Shown one piece after another: positions 31,104-32,640 of a DNA stretch of 64,000 nt (position 1 is its first letter; every line of letters starts with the position of its first letter). A program made the position numbers and the translations under genes. This DNA comes from Eledone cirrhosa. Lineage: Eukaryota. The stretch spans positions 15,004,001 through 15,068,000 of the forward strand of contig OZ024764.1 in NCBI GenBank assembly GCA_964016885.1, given 5' to 3'. The notes under the pieces were generated by a model that saw nothing but the letters and a program-made list of their open reading frames with translations, had not been told where the DNA came from and did not search any database.

Positions 31104-31528
31104 CCATCATCATCATTTTACGTCCGCTCTTCCCTGCTTTCAAGGGTGGGACGGGTCTTATTCAGCACAGCATCTCTCCACTCGTCACGGTCCTTCGTCA
31201 TCTCCACCGTGAGCTTCAGTGATCTGAGGTCAGCTCTCACCACCTCCGCCCATGTTTTTCGTGGTCTACCTCTACCACGTCTTCCTTCAACTGGCATTTC
31301 CTGGCACTTCTTCACCCATCGGTCATCCTCCATACGAATCACATGTCCATACCACCTCGGTCTCCTCTCCCGTACACTACATTCTATCCCTCTCAGACAC
31401 AGTTTCTCTCTCAACATATCCATGCTGGGTCGTTCACGCACATTTACACTGCACATCCAACGGAGCATGCTTGCCTCATTTCTCTCCAGCCGTCGCATAT
31501 CCTCTGCAGTTGCTGCCCATGTCTCATA
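31104..31528 (-). mobile_element. RTE LINE 3' fragment (second subfamily)
   Basis: [16 protein letters not shown]...RWYGHVIRM...GRPRKTW followed by a (TGA)n tail. A shorter copy lies at 59445-59602. Confidence 0.9.
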
Positions 31529-31530
31529 TA

Positions 31531-31597
<67 letters not shown>

Positions 31598-31625
31598 TTT
31601 GATGTGAGATATACTAATTTTACTG

Positions 31626-31802
31626 GATTCCTGTTGATAAGCACAGAAGATTTGGATATTTCACTCTTTTATTTCTATTCCATTTCGATTCTCTTTATTT
31701 TTCAATTCACATTCCACCGTTGCGAAACGGATTTAGGTTTCGAGGTTCAAATTCGTCTACAGAACAGGTTTGAATTTTGAAATCTGAATCTGTCCAGGAA
31801 TC
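31626..31802 (+). ncRNA. Large type I hammerhead ribozyme, U3-A8 core, 27-bp stem III
   Basis: Stem I GATTCCTG(31626)/CAGGAATC(31795); core TTGATAA; stem II GCA...TGC; GAAA at 31724; stem III 31727-31753 pairs with 31767-31793; GTC site at 31792-31794. Confidence 0.8.
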
Positions 31803-32023
31803 ATGGCAGTTGCCAATATAAGCTTGTCTTTATTGACTTGTATCGAGACAGACAAATTGTATTCACTTTAATTAGTTTATTTCATTAATAGCTAACTTTG
31901 TCTGTTGCAATGTAAACACGTTTCGTGTTTATCATATATTTTAATGTATATATATATATAGATATATATATAGGAAAAGAGTCAGAACCCCGACGGCTGA
32001 GCTCCAGCCGTTTTGACAGCTAG

Positions 32024-32084
<61 letters not shown>

Positions 32085-32140: not shown

Positions 32141-32640
32141 TATTGTTATACTTTGGGAGGGTCATGTTGCCAATAAGAAACACACGCACCAGTTGCTTTC
32201 ACTCCAATTTATTATAAATTTAAGAATTTATAAATTTCCAGTTGGTTGGTTCCATAACCAGACGGTTGTTCATATATTGTCAAAGTTCTTTCGTCCCACA
32301 TTCTGTGACCTCTTCAGTGACTGGGGATTCTTTTCTTTGTTTTTGTGCCGCTCCTTTGTTCTGTCCTACGCCATCTTGTTTTTTCAAGATGGCGTAGGAC
32401 AGAACAAAGGAGAGGCACAAAAACAAAGAAAAGAAAAGAATCCCCAGTTACTGAAGAGGTCACAGAATGTGTGACGAAAGAACTTTGACAATATATGAAC
32501 AACCGTCCGGTTGTGGAACCAACCAACCGGAAATTTATAAATTCTTAAATTTATAAATTTAATTTATAATAAATTGGAGTGAAAGCAACTGGTGCATGTG
32601 TTTCTTATTGGCAACATGACCCTCCCAAAGTATAACAATA
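32141..32640. mobile_element. Fold-back element (~240-bp arms, family D) with a hammerhead in each arm (32279-32321 minus; 32447-32489 plus)
   Basis: Centre CCATCTTG-TTTTTT-CAAGATGG. GTYA-CTGAAGA-G-GTCAC-AGAATGT-GKGAC-GAAA-GAAC-TT-TGAC. Confidence 0.75.

Follow-up and report, generated by a model that had tools for sequence, protein, structure and literature searches.

The question raised by this locus is whether the large hammerhead at 31626-31802 of the window (the whole 64-kb stretch of Eledone cirrhosa DNA analysed here) is a structure of its own kind or belongs to a known class of elements. A first-pass annotation had described it as a singular element, opposite in architecture to the hammerheads of Penelope-like elements (PLEs). 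Our analysis leads to another reading, in which the motif belongs to one of many copies of a Penelope-type repeat and the long stem consists of a palindromic stem III in doubled form. We consider it probable, at roughly 0.8, that the locus holds a type I hammerhead, with a predicted cut after 31794, within a non-coding tandem repeat that is likely a non-autonomous Penelope-like retroelement (non-LTR retrozyme). As judged by sequence comparison, the structure is real and under selection; its architecture is unusual, and the class of mobile elements to which it belongs is an ordinary one. U3-A8 cores, pseudoknots and long helices III have each been published, and the retrozyme class is known as well; what goes beyond the first-pass annotation is, on the same grounds, the duplication of a stem III module and the predicted pseudoknot between loop II and the 5' flank.

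The hammerhead of the window copy

The features of the locus are listed below by position in the window, with the strand given in brackets.

31533-31595 (no strand): (TA)n microsatellite and T run, 5' junction, likely target site
31596-31952 (+): single copy, truncated at its 5' end, of the 558-nt non-coding unit that retrozyme family 1 carries in tandem; 97% identical to a natural full unit, unit positions 136-493
31604-31625 (+): predicted pseudoknot helix, 5' strand, in the 5' flank directly before stem I; 19 pairs at -17.8 kcal/mol, equalled by 0 of 300 shuffles
31626-31633 (+): stem I, 5' strand; changes on both sides at 4 of 8 pairs across families
31634-31640 (+): core box UUGAUAA, with U3-A8 replacing C3-G8; sister families have C3-G8
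31641-31643 (+): stem II, 5' strand; G10.1-C11.1 unchanged in 18 of 18 representatives
31644-31664 (+): predicted pseudoknot helix, 3' strand, the first 21 nt of loop II
31665-31720 (+): remainder of loop II, pyrimidine-rich and length-variable
31721-31757 (+): duplicated module, copy 1: stem II 3' strand, GAAA box, 26-nt palindromic arm, GUC
31727-31793 (+): stem III hairpin, 27 contiguous pairs (8 G.U) and 2 more past a 1x1 mismatch; -30.5 kcal/mol
31758-31794 (+): duplicated module, copy 2: decayed GAAA box, palindromic arm, GUC, predicted cut after 31794
31795-31802 (+): stem I, 3' strand, from the base-by-base check and the alignment of representatives
31803-31952 (+): 3' segment common to the superfamily, ending about 158 nt past the predicted cut
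31953-31972 (no strand): (TA)n, 3' junction

Checked base by base, stem I joins 31626-31633 to 31795-31802 in eight perfect pairs, and stem II (GCA/UGC, 31641-31643 with 31721-31723) closes with three pairs a loop II of 77 nt (31644-31720). The GAAA box lies at 31724-31727 and GUC at 31792-31794, whereas stem III pairs 31727-31753 with 31767-31793 through 27 contiguous pairs (19 Watson-Crick, 8 G.U and no mismatch). All the parts that the first-pass annotation had named, from stem I and the UUGAUAA core to the 3-pair stem II, the 77-nt loop, GAAA and GUC, were found where it had placed them, and so was U3-A8 in place of C3-G8, which is a published natural variant. The window copy thus has the 3-8 pair, G12-A13-A14, A15.1-U16.1 and H17 of a type I hammerhead, with three helices round the core, G10.1-C11.1 and an open stem I. 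In line with a plus-strand RNA structure, folding of both strands gave z = -4.68 for the plus strand (0 of 200 shuffles equally good) and z = -0.71 for the minus strand. On this structural model, cleavage of the window hammerhead as a monomer is plausible.

A scan of the whole 64-kb window at Rfam gathering scores returned no matches, hammerhead models included. Since forms with a large loop II and a long stem III escape that threshold, animal ribozymes of such kind are probably undercounted.

The proposed prolongation of stem I by ACTG/CAGT did not hold up: it is unconserved, with C at 31808 in 39 of 41 aligned copies (some of them from overlapping loci), and the bases upstream of stem I pair with the start of loop II instead.

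Sister families, covariation and the predicted pseudoknot

In a DNA search with the window element, in which the best 40 of 1,775 candidates were scored, the top identities were 96-98%. An exact two-anchor pattern counted 825 copies of family 1, against 2 for the reversed control, and a motif shared downstream counted 2,681 copies of the superfamily, against 11 for its control. Family 1 has a cut-to-cut period of 558 nt. Family 2, found through a 75% match beside one copy, has a 549-nt unit with up to four units in tandem, and family 3, found by a motif scan of the family 2 loci, has a unit of about 510 nt; across the superfamily, tandem unit lengths range from 473 to 596 nt. The longest ATG frames, 22 aa in a natural dimer and 26 aa, leave no coding capacity, and the GC content of the units is 34% and 31%.

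From 160 loci, 151 hammerheads were parsed, 106 of them distinct, and stem I occurs among them in at least seven matched sequence versions. The cores seen in the superfamily include CUGAUGA, CUGAGGA, CUGAAGA, CAGAAGA and CCGAAGA, together with UUGAUAA, which is confined to family 1. A pattern made of the pseudoknot strand and the core, with positions 3 and 8 left free, had 895 matches and none in its control; among the first 100 of these 895 matches, the 3-8 pair is kept in 98 (72 C-G, 26 U-A, 2 unpaired).

For covariation we aligned 18 hand-picked long-stem representatives, in which 91.9% of cells are paired and 11 of 54 pairs have changed on both sides. The covariation score of 0.229 exceeds both the shuffled value of 0.157, with 0 of 500 shuffles as high (a count that is not a probability, since the representatives are related by descent), and slid controls, which stay at or below 0.095. 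Compensatory changes between sister families affect stem I, stem II and the 3-8 core pair, which argues for selection of the fold on the plus strand. Among the homologues, stem I, the core and stem III have been maintained jointly, with changes that compensate each other, as should be the case for an element of the kind first annotated.

Three side observations concern the cores and other motifs. About 42 of the first 100 listed cores carry A at position 4. Among 30 loci compared for position 4 and stem III (L261-L290; 2 unparsed and 4, namely L264, L267, L273 and L276, mis-parsed or truncated), cleanly parsed A4 cores accompany a short or mid-length stem III and U4 the doubled stem, an association confounded by descent. 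Separate hammerhead-like motifs were also encountered: on the plus strand of L120, near 1974-2100, one whose minimal stem III is palindromic and whose loop II measures about 90 nt, and in L012, at about 1285-1335 on the element's strand, an apparent minimal hammerhead of another repeat at which a retrozyme 5' junction lies.

Stem II and loop II together span 31-44 nt in most relatives and 82-84 nt in most family 1 copies, with 42 nt in one. The size of loop II would be explained by a predicted pseudoknot with the 5' flank. All 14 representatives examined, drawn from three families, show a predicted duplex between flank and loop II, with energies of -10.6 to -22.6 kcal/mol where shuffled sequences reach about -6 (P at most 0.027), and three of its pairs have changed on both sides, for example U-A to A-U at the second pair. 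Across families the helix has about 16-20 pairs, with bulges; in the unadjusted alignment its proximal part is 82% paired, five family 2 rows that are out of register being counted as unpaired. In a cross matrix of flanks and loops, the cognate duplexes were not always the strongest. The model suggests that the helix likely braces the active fold; with about 19 pairs, it would take the place of the usual contact between loop 1 and loop 2.

The same helix might instead be a brake that forms first during transcription, traps the 5' strand of stem I and the core in an 18-nt loop and so delays or blocks cleavage, for example protecting a circle. When the flank is included, the nested minimum-energy fold does retain the flank helix and stem III and loses stem I, at -46.2 kcal/mol for flank helix plus stem III versus -39.7 for stems I, II and III. 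However, the helix uses no bases of stem I, core or stem II, so that both can coexist as a pseudoknot; in three families it begins exactly at the ends of stems I and II; and in the study of Perreault et al. (2011, PMC3088659), pseudoknots between stems I and II increase activity. We therefore regard a brake as unlikely and retain the bracing pseudoknot as the preferred reading.

Stem III: wobbles and module duplication

The first-pass annotation had read the 27 mismatch-free pairs with 8 G.U wobbles as the mark of selection on a plus-strand RNA. The description is accurate for the window copy and does not extend to the family. Sixty insertions were taken in order along one contig and two were dropped for stem length; of the remaining 58, only 12 keep all 27 pairs intact, and most have one mismatch, at pair 3 or 4. 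The conclusion drawn from it nonetheless stands, being borne out by the compensatory changes described above and by the strand asymmetry of the oppositions in the 58 stems, 475 G.U against 5 A.C. Between families, 18 of the 30 pairs of stem III show change on one side only, alternating between Watson-Crick and G.U, and 2 on both. Pairing is kept by 7 of 9 variants shared by at least three copies versus 9 of 24 rarer ones (p = 0.057). These comparisons support selection for a stem III helix on the plus strand, and the G.U pairs may have accumulated because the RNA helix is retained. The exact combination of arms of the window copy occurs once in the genome and is probably, to judge from its sequence, a mosaic of two subfamilies.

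Comparison of the two halves of the long stem III shows them to be head-to-tail copies of a 37-nt palindromic module. The two copies are identical at 21 of 37 positions in the window and at 32 of 37 in another locus, L148, and a third locus, L153, has a single module that matches copy 1 of the window at 31 of 37. In relatives, stem III regions fall into lengths of 15-19, 24-31 and 66-67 nt; short stems are numerous (244 exact copies for one pattern alone), and family 3 has a 5-pair stem III. In terms of predicted energies, the single module of L153 reaches -9.8 kcal/mol alone and -30.4 as a homodimer of 30 pairs, compared with -30.5 for the window hairpin, while the short forms have -1.7 alone and about -11 as dimers. 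In this regard, the doubled module would provide intramolecularly the duplex for which a single palindromic module would need a partner copy, and the doubled form would accordingly work as a monomer. As to the order of events, trees of 34 sequences, rooted on family 3 as an outgroup on a long branch, conflict with high support on each side: the upstream tree nests short stems within the doubled ones, and the downstream tree has short stems basal.

Could the long hairpin have been retained for a role of its own, as a Dicer or ADAR substrate yielding small RNAs or edited RNA? Its 27-30 pairs, the prevalence of changes that merely alternate between Watson-Crick and G.U, and the many family members with a doubled stem would suit such a role. 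On the other hand, relatives with short stems were amplified too, including the pattern with 244 exact matches and the 5-pair family 3, and most copies carry a mismatch near the base of the stem. In addition, private stem III variants show no excess of A>G in three families (family 1, 5 A>G versus 4 T>C; family 2, 2 versus 2; a comparison of low power, with overlapping loci uncollapsed), hence no sign of editing as the origin of the wobbles. We find this role improbable, and the doubled palindromic stem III of a PLE-type hammerhead the better account. As a source of the G.U pairs, an ADAR imprint was set aside on the same low-power comparison, A>G not being above T>C among private variants.

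Insertion pattern, proposed cycle and comparison with known systems

The host genome, of 3.0 Gb, is rich in (TA)n, and the 357-bp window copy sits between two (TA)n tracts and terminates at the main fixed 3' end of family 1. Mapped on the natural full unit, 60 loci consist of tandem units whose upstream copies are 5'-truncated and often inverted. Among 95 distinct 3' ends, 45 lie at 150-169 nt and 40 at 230-249 nt past the cut, and TA-rich DNA follows 77, whereas the 138 5' ends are scattered, with none within 3 nt past the cut; these loci were picked by similarity, so that the counts are not those of a random sample. The tail measures about 85 nt. The hallmarks of Penelope-like insertion are thereby present, namely 5' truncation, partial tandems, inverted 5' copies, an end tail and a microsatellite target, and the 5' truncation, the inverted 5' copies, the two fixed 3' ends and (TA)n point to a non-LTR retrozyme.

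The same data bear on a DNA-level explanation, in which the repeat would be a satellite or foldback sequence and the hammerhead a relic. AT-rich palindromic arms and slippage-like changes in stem III length would fit such a repeat. Against it stand strand-asymmetric pairing (475 G.U versus 5 A.C), a covarying 3-8 core pair and the polarity of the insertions, whose 3' ends are fixed and whose 5' ends vary, and we hold this explanation to be very improbable. Of the explanations considered, a retroelement with an RNA stage fits better. The predicted circular folds of the units (63-65% paired) gave z of -5.6 and -4.9 on the plus strand and -2.9 and -3.2 on the minus strand, with 20 shuffles each.

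Other repeats were observed around the element. The left flank, 31130-31532, which resembles a LINE-type repeat fragment, has portions that match several other loci. To the right, 32141-32640 is a foldback that covers about 500 bp; its arms, 95-98% complementary, flank a centre of 6 nt, and the whole resembles another inverted insertion. A short GC-rich repeat at 31975-32028 recurs at L012:1-95, L079:1866-1987, L143 and L194, inside (TA)n beside retrozymes; its longer copies are palindromic, and it may be another element with the same target.

A reverse transcriptase would have to come from elsewhere, and the genome offers a candidate. When an RT piece beside one retrozyme copy was used as query, many long open frames were recovered among the best 150 of 21,396 candidates scored, and young PLEs with Hydra-clade motifs and frames above 900 aa are abundant in the genome. 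One full frame has the RWR, DKT, CxCX5C and CxxC motifs, and the family (for example L191:1425-4316 and relatives) matches the Hydra-clade type by motifs alone; a Pfam search of this ORF returned no families. A minimal hammerhead is also present in the candidate helper, some copies of which show an inverted 5' repeat as well. When the retrozyme units were compared by blastn with 39 loci of one Hydra-type family, terminal repeat included, no more than short AT-rich matches came up, and it is from the shared target and anatomy that we infer a partnership between helper and retrozyme. A separate observation is that in L123 a decayed Hydra-type endonuclease fragment (66-413) abuts an inverted retrozyme 5' end, with the junction at about 395-410 and no (TA)n between, an arrangement that could stem from integration into an old copy or from template switching.

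An autonomous PLE that escaped detection could alternatively own the unit as its terminal repeat, the copies being its truncated ends. The insertion anatomy is indeed that of autonomous elements, and Hydra-type coding fragments occur near the repeat at about 9 places in 250 locus records, the one in L123 abutting the 5' junction. Nevertheless, extension upstream always enters another unit, up to four in tandem, and never an ORF (loci of at most 1.5 kb), and the nearby fragments, as detected with one clade's protein, are separated by (TA)n, on the opposite strand, downstream or decayed. Nor was an ORF with RT and GIY-YIG found in line with the unit in the loci examined. We rate such a parent as slightly less probable than even a Dicer or ADAR role, and proceed with the non-autonomous retrozyme.

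Under the cycle that we propose, transcripts through tandem copies would be cut once per unit and the monomers ligated into circles. A Penelope-like RT, most likely that of the abundant Hydra-clade-type element, would prime at (TA)n and begin reverse transcription at one fixed position, either 158 or about 240 nt past the junction; copying over more than one unit length would then run through intact cut sites and leave partial tandems. The DNA is equally compatible with a template that is an uncut linear multimer. The window copy, having one hammerhead, would give no circle alone. The peak of 5' ends that a linear cleaved template should leave at the cut is absent, no end out of 138 and 59 lying within 3 nt of it; the first 31-nt bin of family 1 5' ends holds 14, against a mean near 8, in loci selected by similarity.

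More tentatively, and with less than even confidence, the hammerheads of the superfamily may form a natural series that leads from forms dependent on a partner, with a short palindromic stem III, through forms with a 26-nt palindrome to self-sufficient ones, whose duplicated module builds the dimer duplex intramolecularly. All would be braced by a pseudoknot far longer than those in the studies compared here, and the active circular RNA would ride on Hydra-clade enzymes with which it shares no sequence. Such a series, if real, would be a ready system for testing what the hammerhead does in Penelope-type transposition. In thousands of young copies, core, pseudoknot and stem III length vary independently, which makes monomer versus dimer cleavage and the circle-template model testable on natural variants.

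The open literature yielded no paper that deals with this repeat family, with duplication of a stem III module or with retrozymes of cephalopods, although its supplementary alignments could hold similar motifs. The closest known systems are the animal non-LTR retrozymes, a mussel family among them (Cervera and de la Pena, 2020, PMC7229834), which Li et al. (2026, bioRxiv 10.64898/2026.07.22.740005) term non-autonomous PLEs and of whose predicted dimers they report cleavage in vitro for 1 of 9. Shared with them are low-GC non-coding tandem units that each carry a single type I hammerhead and occur as monomers up to multimers, as well as co-occurring PLEs and a predicted self-paired circle. The monomer of 473-596 nt exceeds the 150-450 bp given by Cervera and de la Pena and falls inside the 51-972 bp of Li et al. 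Further differences are a helix III of 27-30 pairs versus 1-2, a loop II of 30-77 nt with a long predicted pseudoknot versus loop 1-loop 2 contacts, and no match to the terminal repeat of the candidate helper.

The hammerheads of PLE terminal repeats (Cervera and de la Pena, 2014, PMC4209133) likewise are type I with a palindromic helix III, and dimer cleavage is described for them; the same study reports a U3-A8 core in Schistosoma mansoni and, for fungal and protist elements, a large helix III and activity as monomers. Here, in contrast, there is no ORF, the palindrome is enlarged to 26 nt and duplicated, and stem I has 7-8 pairs and stem II 2-3, whereas theirs are short and long, respectively. 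Hammerheads of other permutations are described in PMC10085705. According to Perreault et al. (2011, PMC3088659), a pseudoknot replaces loop-loop contacts in about 40% of hammerheads; as in their pseudoknotted cases, a predicted helix here joins stems I and II, stem II is short and U3-A8 covaries naturally, although examples from that study have 4-6 pairs and the helix predicted here about 16-20, with bulges.

Finally, the Hydra-clade PLEs described by Craig et al. (2021, PMC8557442) show (TA)n targets, 5' truncation, partial tandems, an inverted 5' copy and a tail at one end. The repeat follows the same insertion pattern, with a tail of about 85 nt versus 30-40 bp, but, unlike the Hydra-clade-type element of this genome, with its RT, endonuclease and minimal hammerhead, it is non-coding and has no detectable sequence in common with it. 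The insertion junctions back the view of animal retrozymes as non-autonomous PLEs by anatomy, not by sequence similarity.
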